Assembly: GCA_031390205.1 (NCBI GenBank)
Contig: JANMTG010000084.1
Location: forward strand, 315 to 64,314
Reading direction: 5' to 3'
DNA: 64,000 nucleotides
From: Gemmatimonadota bacterium
GTDB taxonomy: Bacteria > Gemmatimonadota > Gemmatimonadetes > Gemmatimonadales > Gemmatimonadaceae
Part shown: one piece after another, positions 10,397 through 43,528 of the stretch
How the letters are laid out: the number at the start of each line of letters is the position of its first letter
Position numbering within the stretch: the stretch's first letter is position 1
Notes under the pieces: generated by a model
Told to the model about the DNA's origin: nothing
The model's input: the letters and a program-made list of their open reading frames with translations, nothing else
Databases searched by the model: none
Program-made: the position numbers and the translations under genes

Positions 10397-11133
10397 TTCA
10401 CATCGATCTCAGCGGCAAGACCGCACTCGTCACCGGAAGTACTCGCGGCATCGGCCGTGCGATCGCCGAGACGTTCATGTCGTGTGGTGCAAGGGTGGCG
10501 GTGGTGGGCCGCGATCTAGAGCGCGCCGAGGTGGCGGCCAGAGAACTCGGAGGCTCCGCTCAGGGCTTCGCCTGTGATGTCAGCGATACCGCGGCGGTTG
10601 CCAGGCTCGTCGCCGATGTGGAGGCCGCGTTCGGCTCCATCGACATCCTCGTCAACAACGCCGGCATTACCCGCGACAATCTCGTCATGCGTCTCAAGGA
10701 CGAAGACTGGGACGCGGTGCAGAACGCAAACCTGCGGGGCGCCTTCGCTGCGATCCGCGCTGTCTCGAGGGGCATGATGAAGCGGCGCTCCGGCCGCATC
10801 ATCAACGTCGCCAGCATCGTCGGTCTGATCGGGAACAAGGGTCAGGCGAACTACGCCGCCAGCAAGGCAGGCCTCATCGCGCTCACCAAGACCGTAGCAA
10901 AGGAGCTCGGCTCGCGGAACATCCTCGTGAACGCGGTCGCGCCCGGATTCATCGAGACGGAGATGACCGCCGCCATGACTCCCGAGGCCCGGGAGGCACT
11001 AGGCAAACAGATTGCACTTGAACGGCTCGGGACCACCAAGGATGTCGCCGCCGCCGTCGCATTTCTCGCCTCCGACCTCGCCTCCTACATCACCGGACAG
11101 GTTTTCGTCGTGGATGGTGGGATGGTTATGTAA
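10393..11133 (+). CDS. fabG: 3-oxoacyl-ACP reductase
   Basis: GTGA overlap with the fabD stop. The supplied ORF from 10102 is an upstream extension. TGSTRGIGRAIA Rossmann motif and the YAASKAG catalytic motif. Confidence 0.92.
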   Translation: MIHIDLSGKTALVTGSTRGIGRAIAETFMSCGARVAVVGRDLERAEVAARELGGSAQGFACDVSDTAAVARLVADVEAAFGSIDILVNNAGITRDNLVMRLKDEDWDAVQNANLRGAFAAIRAVSRGMMKRRSGRIINVASIVGLIGNKGQANYAASKAGLIALTKTVAKELGSRNILVNAVAPGFIETEMTAAMTPEAREALGKQIALERLGTTKDVAAAVAFLASDLASYITGQVFVVDGGMVM

Positions 11134-16253: not shown

Positions 16254-16871
16254 ATGCTCGATACGATCATCACCTGGCTGGGCAATCTTCCGGTCGGCAC
16301 CCTTTACGTCGCCATCGCCGGCCTCTCGGCGTTCGAGAACTTTTTCCCGCCGTTTCCATCCGACGGCGTGATCGCCTTCGGCAGCTTTCTCGCTTCCCGG
16401 GCTAACGGCTCTCCGGTCATGGTTTTTCTGCTCGGATGGTTCGGCAACGTAGCCGGCGCGATGGTCACCTACACCCTGGTCCGGCGCTTCGGCTCCGGCA
16501 TGATTCTGACGCGCCTCGAGAAGTACGTGGGCCCGACGGCGGAGAACAGAATGAAGGAGCTGATCGCGAAATACGGGTTCGGGGGATTGTTCGTGAGCCG
16601 GTTTCTGCCCGGAGTGCGCGCCATCGTACCGCCCTTTGCGGGGGCGATGCGCCTGCCCGCATGGAAGGTGTTTCTGGCCGTCGGCAGCGCGTCGGCGGTT
16701 TGGTTCGGCCTTATCACCTTTCTCGCCTTTCGCGCGGGCGACAACTGGGAGCTCCTCCAGCACTATATGCTGCGCTCGGGGCAGTGGGCGGGAGTGATAG
16801 CGGCGGCATTGGTCGCGCTCCTGGCAGGCCTCTGGCTCCGCCGCCGCCGCGAGAGGCAGATGCGTGACTAG
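16254..16871 (+). CDS. DedA/SNARE-associated family membrane protein
   Basis: FENFFPPFPSD signature near the N-terminus and 4-5 hydrophobic helices. Starts directly after the ispF stop. Confidence 0.8.
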   Translation: MLDTIITWLGNLPVGTLYVAIAGLSAFENFFPPFPSDGVIAFGSFLASRANGSPVMVFLLGWFGNVAGAMVTYTLVRRFGSGMILTRLEKYVGPTAENRMKELIAKYGFGGLFVSRFLPGVRAIVPPFAGAMRLPAWKVFLAVGSASAVWFGLITFLAFRAGDNWELLQHYMLRSGQWAGVIAAALVALLAGLWLRRRRERQMRD

Positions 16872-17784
16872 GATTTCCCTCAACGACGCGGTTGCCCGTT
16901 CCTTCTTCGTCGAGCGGTTCGACGATTTTCTGGCGCTGGAGCAGGGCGCGTCGGTCGAGACGAGCAAGGCCTACAAGCTCGACATCGAGCGCTTCGTAAC
17001 GTACGAACACGTGAAGGGCGCAGTCTCGCCGAGCGAGGTCGGAGCGCGCTCCCTACGCGAATACATCTACCACCTCAAGGACCTTGGGCTCGCACCAGCC
17101 TCAATACGGCGCAACATCTCGGCGGTGCGAACCTATTTTAAGTTCCTTCTGGGCGAAGGTCACGTGGTGCGCGATCCGAGCGAGCGGCTGGAGACGCCGA
17201 AGCGGTGGCGCACGCTTCCGGAAGTGCTGGCGGTGGACGAGGTGGAGCGACTGCTTGCCGCACCCTCTCTCGACGAACGTCTCGCCTTTCGCGACCGGGC
17301 GATGCTCGAAGTGGCATACGGCGCGGGACTGCGTGTATCGGAGTGGATATCACTTGGTGTCCGGGACGTGATGCTCCAGGACCACCTGGTTCGCGTTTTC
17401 GGCAAGGGCGCCAAGGAGCGACTCGTGCCGATCGGTCGTCGCGCGATCGGAGCGATCGCGATCTACATGCGCGAGCTGAGGCCGTCGCTGGAGAAAGGAG
17501 AAGGGAAGGGCGTTCTGTTTCTGAGCGCGCGGGGGCAACCGCTGTCGCGCATGGGTGCATGGAAGATTCTCAGGAAGTACGTCGACAAGGCAGGCATCAC
17601 CAAGCCTGTTTCCCCCCACACCCTGCGGCACTCCTTTGCCACTCACCTGCTGGAGGGCGGCGCCGACCTCAGGGCCGTGCAGGAAATGCTGGGTCATGTA
17701 GACATCTCGACCACCCAGATATACACCCACATCGACCGTGAATACCTGCGCAGCGTCCACAAACAGTTCCATCCGCGCTCCTGA
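16864..17784 (+). CDS. xerD: tyrosine site-specific recombinase XerD (Xer family)
   Basis: C-terminal catalytic region HTLRHSFATHLLEGGADLRAVQEMLGHVDISTTQIYTH. The N-terminal SAM-like domain carries FLALEQGAS..T..AY. About 300 aa. Confidence 0.85.
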   Translation: MTRISLNDAVARSFFVERFDDFLALEQGASVETSKAYKLDIERFVTYEHVKGAVSPSEVGARSLREYIYHLKDLGLAPASIRRNISAVRTYFKFLLGEGHVVRDPSERLETPKRWRTLPEVLAVDEVERLLAAPSLDERLAFRDRAMLEVAYGAGLRVSEWISLGVRDVMLQDHLVRVFGKGAKERLVPIGRRAIGAIAIYMRELRPSLEKGEGKGVLFLSARGQPLSRMGAWKILRKYVDKAGITKPVSPHTLRHSFATHLLEGGADLRAVQEMLGHVDISTTQIYTHIDREYLRSVHKQFHPRS

Positions 17785-34062: not shown

Positions 34063-34777
34063 CCGGACCCTGGTTATCGTTCCTACGTACAATGAGCGGT
34101 TCAACATCGCCCGGGTGATTCCCGCCATCCTGGCCAAGGACCCGTCACTTGAAGTGCTCGTTGTCGACGACGGCTCCCCCGACGGCACGGGGGGGATCGT
34201 TGACGGGATCGCTGCCGGCGACCCACGCGTCCACGTCATCCATCGCTCCGGAAAGCTGGGGCTCGGAACGGCCTATATCACCGGGTTTCGCTGGGCTCTC
34301 GAGCGGAAATACGATGTCATCTTCGAGATGGACGCCGACTTCTCCCACAACCCGGACCGGCTGCCCGAGTTCCTGTCCGCGATCAAGGAGGCGGATCTGG
34401 TACTTGGCTCACGTTACCAGGACGGCCACGTCAACGTGGTGAACTGGCCGATGAGCAGGCTTTTTTTGAGCTACGCCGCGAATATCTATGCCCGGGCAGT
34501 AACCGGCCTGCCAGTCTTCGACGCGACGGGTGGATTCAAGTGCTTCCGCAGGAATGTACTTGAATCCATCGATCTAAACTCCGTCAAATCAAACGGTTAC
34601 GCGTTCCAAATCGAGATGTCATACAGAGCCTGGAAAAAGGGATTTCGGCTAATGGAGATTCCGATTGTCTTCGTGGATCGCGCCGAAGGCGTGAGCAAGA
34701 TGTCGAAGCGCATCGTCCGTGAAGCCGTGTGGATGGTCTGGCGTCTGCGCTGGTGGAGCCTCATCGGGAGGATCTGA
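34016..34777 (+). CDS. polyprenol-phosphate mannosyl/glycosyltransferase (Dpm1/Ppm1-like GT2, soluble type)
   Basis: IVPTYNERFNI, VLVVDDGSPDGT, and DADFSH motifs. The start is ambiguous (TTG 34016, GTG 34031 or TTG 34055). Confidence 0.82.
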   Translation: MRWRRVFGKIGDALADRTLVIVPTYNERFNIARVIPAILAKDPSLEVLVVDDGSPDGTGGIVDGIAAGDPRVHVIHRSGKLGLGTAYITGFRWALERKYDVIFEMDADFSHNPDRLPEFLSAIKEADLVLGSRYQDGHVNVVNWPMSRLFLSYAANIYARAVTGLPVFDATGGFKCFRRNVLESIDLNSVKSNGYAFQIEMSYRAWKKGFRLMEIPIVFVDRAEGVSKMSKRIVREAVWMVWRLRWWSLIGRI

Positions 34778-35607
34778 TGACTGCCTGGGGGGAAGGTCAG
34801 CGATTTTTCAAAATGACGGGGTCGGGGAACGACTTCGTGGTTTTCGAGTCCACCCAAGGCGGAGCCTCGGACCTCGAGAACGCCGACGCCATTCAGGCTC
34901 TGGCCAGCAGGGGCACGGGGGTTGGGGCTGATGGGGTCGTTTTCCTCCAAAGGGCGGGGAAGGGAGACGTCCGGATGCGATACTATAACAGCGATGGCTC
35001 CGAAGCGGCCCTTTGCGGAAACGCCAGCCTCTGCAGCACCCGCCTTGCGGTCGAGCTGGGGTTGGCGCAAGCCGGCGGGTTCATCCTTCATACGGCGGCC
35101 GGAGCGCTCCGCGCCCGGCTGCGCGACGGTTTGCCGGAGGTCGACCTCGAAGCGGTTACCGAGGTGCGGCCCGACGCCAGCGAACTGGGCGCCGAGCCAG
35201 GGGAGCGGCGTCTCGGATTCGCCTGCGCCGGGGTACCTCATGTGGTGGTTGAAATGGCCGATGTCGAGTCTGCCCGTGTGACGGAGCGGGGGCCCGAGCT
35301 CCGGCATCATCCCAAGCTGAAGGACGGTGCGAATGTCAACTTCGTGGCGAGGCGGCCGGCGGGCGGTTGGACCTATCGCACCTACGAGCGCGGAGTGGAG
35401 GCGGAAACCCTGGCATGCGGGACTGGCGCCGTGGCCGCCGCGATCCTGCTGGCTAGCTGGGGTGAGTCAGGCAATGAGACGGTTCTCTGGACCCGGTCCG
35501 GGCTCCCGCTGACGATCACGCTCCGACGTGAGGGCTCAAGCTGGATGCCCTCGCTTCGCGGAGAGGGAAGGATCGTTTTCGAGGGCCGTTTGCGCGAGAT
35601 GGACTGA
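34777..35607 (+). CDS. dapF: diaminopimelate epimerase
   Basis: Start ATG overlaps the previous stop (TGATG). FFKMTGSGNDFVVF and the two catalytic Cys contexts CGNASLC and ACGTGAVAAA. Confidence 0.9.
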   Translation: MTAWGEGQRFFKMTGSGNDFVVFESTQGGASDLENADAIQALASRGTGVGADGVVFLQRAGKGDVRMRYYNSDGSEAALCGNASLCSTRLAVELGLAQAGGFILHTAAGALRARLRDGLPEVDLEAVTEVRPDASELGAEPGERRLGFACAGVPHVVVEMADVESARVTERGPELRHHPKLKDGANVNFVARRPAGGWTYRTYERGVEAETLACGTGAVAAAILLASWGESGNETVLWTRSGLPLTITLRREGSSWMPSLRGEGRIVFEGRLREMD

Positions 35608-35755
35608 CAGACTGTCGCTGAGGCGGTCGCGGACTGTCTGCTGCCGAGCTCCTGTAGTGCTTTGTGAAGTGCCCGCGGTAAGGCTAAGGGCCCGTATCGG
35701 TTGGACAGTGGAGGAGTGGCAGTAGCGAACTTCTCCACATCTTCTGTGCAGTTGT

Positions 35756-35783
35756 AGTTTACATAATACATCTTATACGCATA
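35756..35783. other. dif: candidate dif site (XerC/XerD chromosome dimer resolution site)
   Basis: The bottom strand reads TATGCGTATAA-GATGTA-TTATGTAAACT (11-6-11). The right arm is identical to the B. subtilis dif XerD arm and matches E. coli at 9/11. The left arm matches the E. coli XerC arm GGTGCGCATAA at 8/11. It lies in the AT-rich convergent spacer where gene polarity flips. Confidence 0.65.
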
Positions 35784-35821
35784 TATACGCCAACGCGTAG
35801 GAATCAGTACGCCGTTCGGGG

Positions 35822-36262
35822 TTACTCCTCCGAGTACACCCGCCCCCCTACCAGCGACGCCAGCTGCAGATTGACGAACCATATGCCCGTGTACGTCCAC
35901 CACAGTCCGGGCGACATCACTCCCATCTCCTTGTACCCGTAAGTCAGGATCAACCCGAACACGAAAAACAGAAGTCCCACGTAGGCCGCCGTTCTGGCGC
36001 CTGGGCCAAACCGCGGCCGAATCGCCGCGTACGTCCAGACCAGGAGAATTCCGATGATGAAGTCAAAGAAAACGTAAACCGCGATTTGACCTCCCCCCAT
36101 CGCCGCCATTTCGTCCCCCATACCCGCCTTGAAGGCGTTGGCATCCGCCCGCATGCGGTCCGCCAGAATCACGGCGTTCGAGAGAAAATCGATGATGTTA
36201 AGGACTAGCCCCGCAGCCAAGCCTCCGACCAGCAATTTCTGCGTGTTGATATTAGCGGCCAT
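35822..36262 (-). CDS. hypothetical small integral membrane protein (4 predicted helices)
   Basis: 146-aa ORF with a GGAGAG RBS upstream of the ATG, four clear hydrophobic segments, and high GC3. No family recognised. Confidence 0.6.
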   Translation of the reverse strand: MAANINTQKLLVGGLAAGLVLNIIDFLSNAVILADRMRADANAFKAGMGDEMAAMGGGQIAVYVFFDFIIGILLVWTYAAIRPRFGPGARTAAYVGLLFFVFGLILTYGYKEMGVMSPGLWWTYTGIWFVNLQLASLVGGRVYSEE

Positions 36263-36291
36263 ACTGCTCTCCGTTGAGAAGGTAAGAACGC

Positions 36292-36951
36292 CTAGATACT
36301 CATGCGCTTCGCGCTGATCTCGCCCAGCCTGACACGCGCTTCCGCGGCCATTGGGCCGCTCTCGGCCGCGGCAAGTTCAGTCCATATTGCCTTGGCTTCA
36401 GCCGTCTTGCCGGCTGCCATGTAGGCTCTTCCCGCCGCAGCCAGGTACTGGGCTTTCTCGGCCGGGAATTTGGTCGCTGCCGACGCCGCCTTGTACTCCA
36501 GGGCCGCCGGTCCGAACTCTTTTAGCTCCTCGTAGCCGTTTGCCATTAAGGCATGAATCGAGGGAATGAAATCCGCCGGCGCGCCGGTGAGGGCTTTCTT
36601 CAGCTCCGCGATCCCTTCCCTGGGCTTCTTCTGCTCGTACAGGTTTTGGGCGAGGAAGACAGCCGCCTGGGTCCCCGCCCTGGTCCCCTCGTATCGGGTA
36701 GCCACCTTCTTCAGATCGGATATGGCCAGCGGGAGGTTTCCCGCCGCCGCCGACTGCCGCGCCTGGAAATAAGCCGTTTCAGCGTGCTGCTGGCGCAGCG
36801 ACCGGGATCGCTGGAAAAACCACCAGCCCGCTATGGCGACCGCGAGGGCGAGAAGCGCCCAGGAAACCTGTCGCCTGTGTACGAGAAGCCAGTCGGTGAG
36901 AGAATCCCCGGAGCCGTACCGGTTTCCTGATTTGAATTGCGGAGTGGTCAT
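36292..36951 (-). CDS. membrane-anchored TPR-like protein (YfgM-like)
   Basis: N-terminal anchor WALLALAVAIAGWWFF followed by Ala-rich helical repeats (AYFQARQ..., AVFLAQNLYEQKK..., YLAAAGRAYMAAGK...). Confidence 0.6.
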   Translation of the reverse strand: MTTPQFKSGNRYGSGDSLTDWLLVHRRQVSWALLALAVAIAGWWFFQRSRSLRQQHAETAYFQARQSAAAGNLPLAISDLKKVATRYEGTRAGTQAAVFLAQNLYEQKKPREGIAELKKALTGAPADFIPSIHALMANGYEELKEFGPAALEYKAASAATKFPAEKAQYLAAAGRAYMAAGKTAEAKAIWTELAAAESGPMAAEARVRLGEISAKRMSI

Positions 36952-36988
36952 CGTCTATGGGAAATGGGTGCGGCAGAATAACGGCGAG

Positions 36989-37062
36989 CGCCCCCGGGGT
37001 GACTCGAACACCCGGCCAACGGTTTAGGAAACCGCTGCTCTATCCACCTGAGCTACGGGGGC
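36989..37062 (-). tRNA. tRNA-Arg (anticodon CCT)
   Basis: The reverse complement folds as a cloverleaf. Acceptor GCCCCCG/CGGGGGC, D arm GCTC/GAGC, anticodon stem GCGGT/ACCGT with loop TTCCTAA (CCT), T arm GGGTG-TTCGAGT-CACCC. 74 nt with no encoded CCA. Confidence 0.92.
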
Positions 37063-42220: not shown

Positions 42221-43528
42221 CTACGCGGATTTTCGGCGCATGATTATCCGCAACGGATTGCCGCGAAAGCCCCATGCTTCCCGAAAGCCGTTGTGCAGGT
42301 AGCGAACATAGTGCTCCTGAACGAGGTCAGGGTTGTTCCCGAACACCGCAATCACCGGCGGCGCTGTCTCTACCTGTGTAGCGTAGTTCAGCTTGATCTC
42401 GCGGCCCGCTGCCTGAGGCGGTTGGCGACGGCCCACAATTGCCTCGAGCGTTGTGTTCACCACCGACGTGCTGATGCGCTTGTGCCGCTCCGCATCGACT
42501 TCCAGCAGGAGATCGAGAATCTTCGTCACGCGCTGGCCGCTGAGTGCCGAGGTAAAGATGAATGGAACGAACTTGAGGAAAGGCGCCTTTTCCTGACATT
42601 CGTTCTCGAATTTCACCGCGGTGTTGTTGTCCTTTTCCTTGAGGTCCCACTTGTTGACCACGACTATCAGCCCGCGCCCACTTTCCCACGCCAGAGCCGC
42701 GATCTTGAGATCCTGGTTATGAAGTCCGTCCACGGCATCGAGGATCAGGATGCTGATGTCCGAGCGTTCGATGGCGCGGCGTGTACGAAGCGAGGAATAG
42801 AACTCGATGCCGTCGCTGACCTTGGACTGCCGTCTCAACCCGGCGGTATCGATGAACACGACCTGGCGCCCGTGATACGACATGGGAGTATCGATCGCGT
42901 CGCGCGTGGTCCCGGCTTCGTCCGCAACTACCAGCCGCTCCTCGCCGAGGAGACGATTGATGATGGATGACTTCCCGACATTCGGGCGTCCCACGACCGC
43001 GACCCGCAGCGCATCGGGAATCTCCTCGGCGGCGACCGGAATCCGTTTCACGACCACGTCCAGCATGTCGCCGGAATTCTTCCCGTTGACGGCGGAAACG
43101 GGAACCGGATCCCCCGCTCCCAGCTCGTAGAACTCGTAGAAATCCGTCGTTGCGGGGTCGTCGACCTTGTTGGCGACGAGCACCCAGGGCTTCCGTGATT
43201 CACGCAACAGCGCCACCACACGCGAGTCGCTCGGGTGAAGGCCATGCTTCGCGTCCACGACGAGCATGAGCAGGTCGGATTCCTCGATCGCCTGCATCAC
43301 CTGACGCTTTATCTCGACGTCCATCGGCATTCGTGGGTCGTCCGTCAGTCCACCCGTGTCCACCAGCCAGAACTGCCGGCCATTCCACTCGGCGCGAGCG
43401 AAGTGGCGATCGCGGGTGGTTCCCGCCTCTTCACTGACAATGGCGCTGTTCTCGCCCACGATGCGGTTGAAGAGGGCAGACTTCCCCACATTGGGCCGGC
43501 CGATCAGAGCAATGACGGGGATGTTCAC
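42221..43528 (-). CDS. der: ribosome-associated GTPase Der (EngA)
   Basis: Two G domains with GRPNVGKSALFN and GRPNVGKSSIIN P-loops, plus a C-terminal KH-like domain. Confidence 0.96.
   Translation of the reverse strand: MNIPVIALIGRPNVGKSALFNRIVGENSAIVSEEAGTTRDRHFARAEWNGRQFWLVDTGGLTDDPRMPMDVEIKRQVMQAIEESDLLMLVVDAKHGLHPSDSRVVALLRESRKPWVLVANKVDDPATTDFYEFYELGAGDPVPVSAVNGKNSGDMLDVVVKRIPVAAEEIPDALRVAVVGRPNVGKSSIINRLLGEERLVVADEAGTTRDAIDTPMSYHGRQVVFIDTAGLRRQSKVSDGIEFYSSLRTRRAIERSDISILILDAVDGLHNQDLKIAALAWESGRGLIVVVNKWDLKEKDNNTAVKFENECQEKAPFLKFVPFIFTSALSGQRVTKILDLLLEVDAERHKRISTSVVNTTLEAIVGRRQPPQAAGREIKLNYATQVETAPPVIAVFGNNPDLVQEHYVRYLHNGFREAWGFRGNPLRIIMRRKSA

Follow-up and report, generated by a model that had tools for sequence, protein, structure and literature searches.

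The 64,000-nucleotide stretch of Gemmatimonadota DNA analyzed here (the window) contains, between two convergent genes, a short AT-rich sequence that the initial annotation described as a dif-like XerC/XerD site. The question raised by this locus is whether the sequence is the chromosomal dif of the bacterium or only resembles one, and whether the adjoining DNA holds anything beyond an ordinary dif. We conclude, with a probability of about 0.93, that the 28-mer is the chromosomal dif at the replication terminus of a Gemmatimonadota bacterium whose family-level relatives are Gemmatimonadaceae. The skew, the polarity of KOPS motifs, the uniqueness of the site within the window and related loci, its conservation in place and a prior prediction in G. 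aurantiaca all favor the interpretation as dif that was originally proposed. The dif itself is an ordinary feature that had already been predicted for the phylum. Novelty is confined to a conserved pair of short repeats next to it, which is also the sole part of the locus of interest to the specialist.

Sequence and architecture of the site

Read on the bottom strand from 35783 to 35756, the site is TATGCGTATAA GATGTA TTATGTAAACT, exactly as first annotated. Within these 28 bp, two 11-bp arms are inverted around a 6-bp center (11-6-11), and the inner palindrome ATAA-N6-TTAT is kept, as the initial annotation had noted. The putative XerD-binding arm TTATGTAAACT (35756..35766, minus strand) is identical at 11/11 positions both to the corresponding arm of B. 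subtilis dif and to that of the dif predicted for G. aurantiaca, and it agrees with the right arm of E. coli dif at 9/11 positions. The left arm TATGCGTATAA (35773..35783, minus strand), putatively assigned to XerC by analogy, matches the E. coli XerC arm at 8/11 and the predicted G. aurantiaca dif at 10/11 positions. The arms thus match those of known dif sites, and the scores first reported for B. subtilis (11/11) and E. coli (9/11 and 8/11) are right because the reference sequences quoted for them agree with Kono et al. (2011, BMC Genomics 12:19, Table S1). The central region GATGTA (35767..35772, minus strand), the putative place of strand exchange, is the most variable part of the site among relatives, where GATAGA, GATATG, GATATA, GATGTA and GAGATG are found.

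In AT content, the stretch containing the site ranks first among the 40-mers of the window (29/40). Its description as the only AT-rich island of the window was nevertheless overstated, with stretches at 11125 (28/40) and 60201 (27/40) being nearly equal. The window and the related loci contain no second copy of the 28-mer; in the window, no second match was found even when 3 mismatches were allowed. No other dif-like site with up to 4 mismatches at the 18 fixed positions was detected in the window or in any Gemmatimonadota locus, and XerD half-sites occur elsewhere in the window at a chance-level number. The degenerate dif pattern ATAA-N6-TTATGTWAAHT, with up to 2 mismatches allowed, has a chance expectation of 0.02 per shuffled window.

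Genes of the window

The site lies in a convergent spacer whose length of 214 bp, from the dapF stop at 35607 to the stop of a 146-aa gene at 35822, is as initially given. The gene dapF (34729..35607, plus strand; TIGR00652 DapF, 184.6 bits, above the equivalog cut-off) is the last plus-strand gene of its replichore, converges on dif and is syntenic with it in most Gemmatimonadaceae. On the XerC side, the 146-aa membrane-protein gene (35822..36262, minus strand) has no family match and is lineage-specific cargo outside the dif site proper. Contig JANNPL010000399.1 (MAG GCA_031400015.1) and several Logan contigs also encode this protein in identical form.

The xerD gene reported 18 kb from the site (16864..17784, plus strand) was recovered as a tyrosine recombinase with the HxxR and C-terminal H...Y motifs, which scores 356.6 bits against TIGR02225 XerD (cut-off 329.6) and fails the XerC cut-off. 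It is the sole tyrosine recombinase in the 64 kb, which agrees with the earlier statement that no xerC is present in the window. No ftsK was found in the 64-kb window either. The genes to the left of dif include glmM, sucCD, ndk, plsX, fabH/G/F, menaquinone radical-SAM genes, ispF, xerD, pyrG, kdsA/B, rpoN, glycosyltransferase genes and dapF, and those to the right surE, pcm, gpsA, plsY, der, uvrC, murJ, lpxK/B/A/C/D, skp, bamA and clpB. All genes of the window are housekeeping genes, and no mobile-element genes were found in the 64 kb. Essential housekeeping operons (fab, lpx, bamA, rpoN) surround the terminus, and ~97% of the genes are co-oriented with replication.

Two further observations concern the right-hand part of the window. 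A tRNA-Arg(CCT) gene (36988-37062, minus strand), 1.2 kb from dif, shares 94-100% identity with its counterparts in relatives that have otherwise diverged. The window encodes an intact der (engA) GTPase (42221-43528, 435 aa), whereas the public MAG contig (L001, 2735-4042) has two separate gene calls of 230 and 170 aa in its place, suggesting that this contig contains a frameshift or was misassembled.

Skew, gene orientation and KOPS polarity

The initial annotation had named the extremum of the cumulative GC skew as a check on the site. At the scale of the window, the cumulative G-C maximum lies at 35725, 31 bp from dif, with a skew of +0.019 to the left of dif and of -0.045 to the right, and none of 5000 permutations of 500-bp blocks was as peaked (p < 1/5000). 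The skew thus shifts at the site locally, within the 64-kb window, and the global shift is shown by proxy in G. aurantiaca T-27, whose predicted dif, AATGCGTATAATACATGTTATGTAAACT at 1,930,284, is separated by 0.011 degrees from the point where the GC skew of the whole genome shifts (Kono et al., 2011, Table S1). As the site of the window matches this one at 21/22 arm positions, the test of the skew over a whole replicon is supplied by proxy.

The orientation of the genes switches at the same place. Coding DNA to the left of dif comprises 32.7 kb on the plus strand versus 1 kb on the minus strand, and to the right 24.9 kb on the minus strand versus ~1 kb on the plus strand, so that ~97% of the coding DNA on each side is directed toward dif. 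The minority-strand gene calls are probably wrong.

Skewed octamers that invert at the site had likewise been foreseen, and the polarity of the canonical KOPS GGGNAGGG does invert between 34957 and 36613. In the window, 15 of the 16 copies of this motif point toward dif (5/5 on the plus strand to the left and 10/11 on the minus strand to the right). The nearest copies of the KOPS-type motif GGGAAGGG, at 34957..34964 (plus strand) on the left and at 36613..36620 (minus strand) on the right, are both directed at dif. A naive analysis of k-mer polarity in the window was rejected: many words flip at dif, but this is confounded with the complete switch in gene orientation. For this reason, a pre-specified KOPS motif with same-composition controls was used. 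In 60 other Gemmatimonadota dif loci (the window excluded), 130 copies of GGGNAGGG are directed toward dif and 5 away from it. Its polarity ranks first among the 56 arrangements of the same letters (median 74%), a ranking that reduces but does not remove the partial confounding of GC skew and k-mer polarity with the gene-orientation switch. In a search for polar words in ~497 kb of pooled dif-flanking DNA from the window and the 60 other loci, the most skewed 8-mers were GGGAAGGG (66:1), GGGCAGGG (43:2) and GGGGAGGG (30:2), which jointly make up the E. coli KOPS motif GGGNAGGG. Polar sequences of the kind that orient FtsK thus converge on dif, and the motif counts suggest that the phylum uses KOPS of the E. 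coli type. Further words strongly polar toward dif were GTGGTGG (51:18 and 68:9), TGGTGGAC (42:2) and GCTGGG; they are possibly Chi-like or other architecture motifs, or may reflect codon effects.

Conservation among relatives

Species-representative (GTDB) genomes were scanned with the pattern GCGNATAA-N6-TTATGTAAACT, which occurred in at least 120 stretches from 120 different assemblies; among the matches listed, half came from Gemmatimonadota, mostly from MAGs. In the 31 Gemmatimonadota loci with flanks of 1.5 kb or more on each side, which were ascertained by the dif pattern itself, the genes converge on the site in 27 and the skew changes from plus to minus in 20. Because of this ascertainment, an independent sample of 80 metagenome loci was assembled by DapF protein homology alone (68-85% identity). 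A dif was present in 75/75 of the DapF-anchored loci whose sequence continues for 180 bp or more past dapF, located 150-158 bp after dapF on the same strand and with 0-2 mismatches at the 18 fixed positions. The core as it stands in the window (35756..35783, minus strand) is identical in 5 strain-level assemblies.

When 68 unique sequences were aligned, column conservation was 0.985 in the arms, 0.92 in the center and 0.97 over the whole site, as compared with 0.51-0.73 in the flanks. Among the DapF-anchored relatives the arms are thus fixed and the center is freer, as would be anticipated for a Xer site. Most of the phylum retains the gene order surE-pcm...TPR gene / dif / dapF-GT2-large membrane protein, and the same type of 28-mer marks the point of convergence in genomes with different neighboring genes.

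Some of the loci deserve separate mention. The locus L033, in which skew and gene orientation are reversed, contains at position 306 a second XerD-arm-like half-site, TTATGTAAATT, 1.6 kb from the main site at 1903, and this may be due to rearrangement or to integration of an element. L060, a 2.2-kb contig assigned to a Steroidobacteraceae bin, shares dif and its 10-bp flanks with a Gemmatimonadaceae MAG (L094) and is probably misbinned; L052 and L068 also resemble Gemmatimonadota. Finally, GCGNATAA-N6-TTATGTAAACT is carried by 21 IMG/VR viral contigs of varied GC content (L127-L147), which are candidates for Xer-exploiting elements of other hosts.

Variable DNA on the XerC side

The 146-aa gene is absent in four related loci (L012, L019, L039 and L118). 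In three of these (L019, L039 and L118), the sequence ceases to be homologous to the window at 35784-35786, where the XerC arm has its outer end, and becomes homologous again at 36291-36308. The segment 35784-36291 on the XerC side of dif resembles an insertion hotspot. In three Gemmatimonadota lineages, genes for non-homologous end joining (NHEJ) lie directly against the XerC arm, encoding LigD in L008 (-2749..-83 relative to dif), L033 (-991..-14) and L067 (-3813..+1), and in L067 also Ku. The public MAG contig JANNPL010000399.1 (L001) ends 12 bp from the 28-mer, at about 35796 of the window, and strains that encode an identical 146-aa protein (L003/L004 flank) are distinguished by indels of a single base and of ~9 bp immediately beyond the XerC arm, with the 28-mer itself being invariant. 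According to the CTX-phage model, repeated integration of IMEX-type elements would leave cargo accumulating on the XerC side, and by analogy the cargo seen here would be what such integration leaves behind. No remnant of a second dif-like site supporting this type of integration was found in the window.

Alternative explanations

These observations on the XerC side also bear on whether the 28-mer could be a hybrid or secondary Xer site, either attL or attR of an integrated IMEX or a multimer resolution site of the plasmid type, with the true dif located elsewhere. The variability of the DNA adjoining the XerC arm, from which the 146-aa gene is missing in several relatives and where Ku or LigD is encoded in L008, L033 and L067, is in favor of this explanation, as are the strain-level indels just outside the arm, the contig end 12 bp from the site and the 21 IMG/VR contigs that bear dif-like sites with the same arms. 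However, neither the window nor the Gemmatimonadota loci contain a second dif-like site with up to 4 mismatches that would form a pair of attachment sites, the 64 kb consist of housekeeping genes throughout, and the site coincides exactly with the switch in skew, gene orientation and KOPS polarity and is conserved in place across the phylum. Moreover, no viral site resembles the Gemmatimonadaceae sequence. A prophage or IMEX origin was rejected, the viral contigs that carry the pattern showing no relationship in sequence or GC content, and we consider a secondary site of this kind very improbable. There is next to no chance, in our assessment, that the site looks like dif by coincidence and serves instead as an AT-rich signal between the genes, be it a small RNA, a promoter or a bidirectional terminator. 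While the convergent genes on both sides need terminators and a hairpin at 35708-35738 lies just upstream of the site on the dapF strand, a consensus scan of 35300-36400 yielded no terminator-like or promoter-like site, no Rfam family matched at the site (the sole Rfam match being the tRNA-Arg 1.2 kb away), and the spacer folds no better than its shuffles (z = 0.65), with the 28-mer unpaired in the predicted fold. A coincidence is also contradicted by the chance expectation of 0.02 per window, by the combination of fixed arms and free center, which is the pattern of a recombinase site, and by the recurrence of the same type of 28-mer at convergence points despite different neighboring genes.

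A dimer-resolution site used by a single recombinase (XerH-, XerS- or XerA-like) or by XerD alone would fit a window that shows one recombinase gene and in which no xerC was detected. That gene, however, is an equivalog-level XerD rather than XerS, XerH or XerA. Sites of single recombinases are generally longer or more symmetric, which counts against this explanation, whereas the arms of the present site differ from each other in the manner of two-recombinase systems, whose XerC and XerD arms they resemble. In addition, G. aurantiaca T-27, the one Gemmatimonadetes genome for which Kono et al. (2011) predicted a dif, was counted there among the genomes encoding both XerC and XerD. We therefore regard action of a single recombinase as extremely improbable and retain the chromosomal dif as the preferred interpretation.

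Proposed function of the dif

By analogy to E. coli and B. subtilis, a dimer of the sister chromosomes would arise through homologous recombination. At the septum, as it closes, FtsK would read GGGNAGGG and pump the DNA until the two copies of dif meet. The XerD encoded at 16864-17784 would bind TTATGTAAACT, and a XerC paralogue encoded outside the window would bind TATGCGTATAA. Activation of XerD by FtsK and two pairs of strand exchanges across GATGTA would then resolve the dimer. In this scheme the assignment of the proteins to the arms, the dependence on FtsK and the recombination itself are all modeled on these two species.

Phased repeats beside the XerD arm

Beyond the XerD arm, two phased tandem 10-bp units with the consensus GTGGAGAAC are conserved in Gemmatimonadaceae and Longimicrobium. 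In the window, the distal unit TGTGGAGAAGT (35729..35739, minus strand) starts 17 nt beyond the arm and carries the sole TGTGGANAA of the window. The TGTGGAGAAGT block is invariant in the alignment of 68 unique close relatives, and a distal unit of the form TGTG[GC]RNAW occurs at the matching phase in 39/59 Gemmatimonadota loci. The proximal unit TGCACAGAAGA (35740..35750, minus strand) is degenerate, with 7/11 positions identical to the distal one; in other Gemmatimonadota an intact unit, GGTGGAGAAC, is found at this position. Relative to the XerD arm, the start of GTGGR falls at +7/+8 in 28 loci and at +17/+18 in 38 loci, reflecting a strict phase. A tandem arrangement is exemplified by GGTGGAGAAGTGTGGAGAAC in L103, and three units are present in L013. 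An inverted partial copy, GTGGAGGAG (35708..35716, plus strand), pairs with 35730-35738 in a 9-bp hairpin stem, and the hairpin (35708-35738) is predicted in both the MFE and the centroid fold. Inverted copies at +30..+59 were found in 12 of the 53 GTDB Gemmatimonadota loci with enough flank.

The repeat motif is absent from the XerC side, from the non-Gemmatimonadota loci that share the dif pattern, and from the group of Gemmatimonadota with ATGGCGCATAA or ACGGCGCATAA as left arms. In Longimicrobium the repeats are present although the neighboring gene is not dapF, which shows that they go with dif and not with dapF. A role of the GTGGAGAA repeat as a KOPS-like guide was considered and rejected, as away from dif the repeat is no more frequent than expected by chance and shows no skew (13 copies in 432 kb), and its G-rich strand is also directed away from dif.

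The units bear a resemblance to the DnaA box TTATCCACA, as TGTGGAnAA, the reverse complement of TTnTCCACA, is an 8/9 match. The consensus of the distal unit, TGTGGAGAA, agrees with TTATCCACA at 8/9 positions, a perfect TGTGGATAA is present in L047 and L067, and the type of box beside dif is TTCTCCACA/TTATCCACA. At least two 9-mers with no more than one mismatch to TTATCCACA are provided by the repeats, of which the window itself has one intact unit. The two tandem units, joined in some species by an inverted unit, recall the core of DARS. The boxes of the present loci differ from datA and DARS, the clusters of DnaA boxes outside oriC, in that position 3 is C, G, A or T. Searches of the literature found nothing on a cluster of DnaA boxes adjoining dif, on the motif string or on such an element.

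We rank the candidate readings of the repeats in the order of a binding site for a protein tied to dif, DnaA boxes and a conserved terminator hairpin. It is conceivable, and we propose it only tentatively, that the dif of Gemmatimonadaceae and Longimicrobium is composite, consisting of a Xer core and DnaA-box-like units that bind DnaA or another factor acting together with XerCD-dif. If so, the bound protein could determine the position of dimer resolution or regulate it, or it could stop forks at dif itself, and the accessory module would be one undescribed for any chromosomal dif. To our knowledge, no Tus, RTP or MatP is known in Gemmatimonadota, and the phased repeats are a concrete lead for a terminus-associated DNA-binding factor in this phylum.

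Significance and comparison with known systems

With the dif, the replication terminus is fixed for an uncultured Gemmatimonadota lineage, as are its two replichores. Placing the terminus helps to order and close MAG contigs, one public MAG being broken 12 bp from dif, and a single prediction from 2011 is hereby extended to more than 130 genomes and metagenomic contigs.

The closest known counterpart is the G. aurantiaca dif, AATGCGTATAA TACATG TTATGTAAACT, which comes from the same phylum and equals the site of the window at 21/22 arm positions. The two differ in the center (TACATG versus GATGTA) and in the first base of the left arm; moreover, the G. aurantiaca site is a computational prediction in a cultured species, whereas the window belongs to an uncultured relative. 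The E. coli dif resembles that of the window in its 28-bp 11-6-11 layout with the inner ATAA-N6-TTAT, its location at the terminus and the convergence of GGGNAGGG on it. Unlike in E. coli, the XerD arm of the window is of the Firmicutes type and is flanked by two phased repeats, and the terminus, poorly conserved in E. coli, lies within conserved essential operons. In the B. subtilis dif and CodV-RipX system, the arm of XerD (RipX), TTATGTAAACT, is identical to that of the window, while the left arm ACTTCCTAGAA is unrelated. The guide motif of SpoIIIE and SftA in B. subtilis is GAGAAGGG and not GGGNAGGG.

The repeats can be likened to the plasmid sites cer and psi, in which a Xer core is combined with adjacent sites for another protein; in psi, ArcA binds direct repeats. 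The accessory sequences of cer and psi extend over ~180 bp on the XerC side and are plasmid-borne, whereas the repeats of the window occupy ~20 bp on the XerD side of a chromosomal dif.
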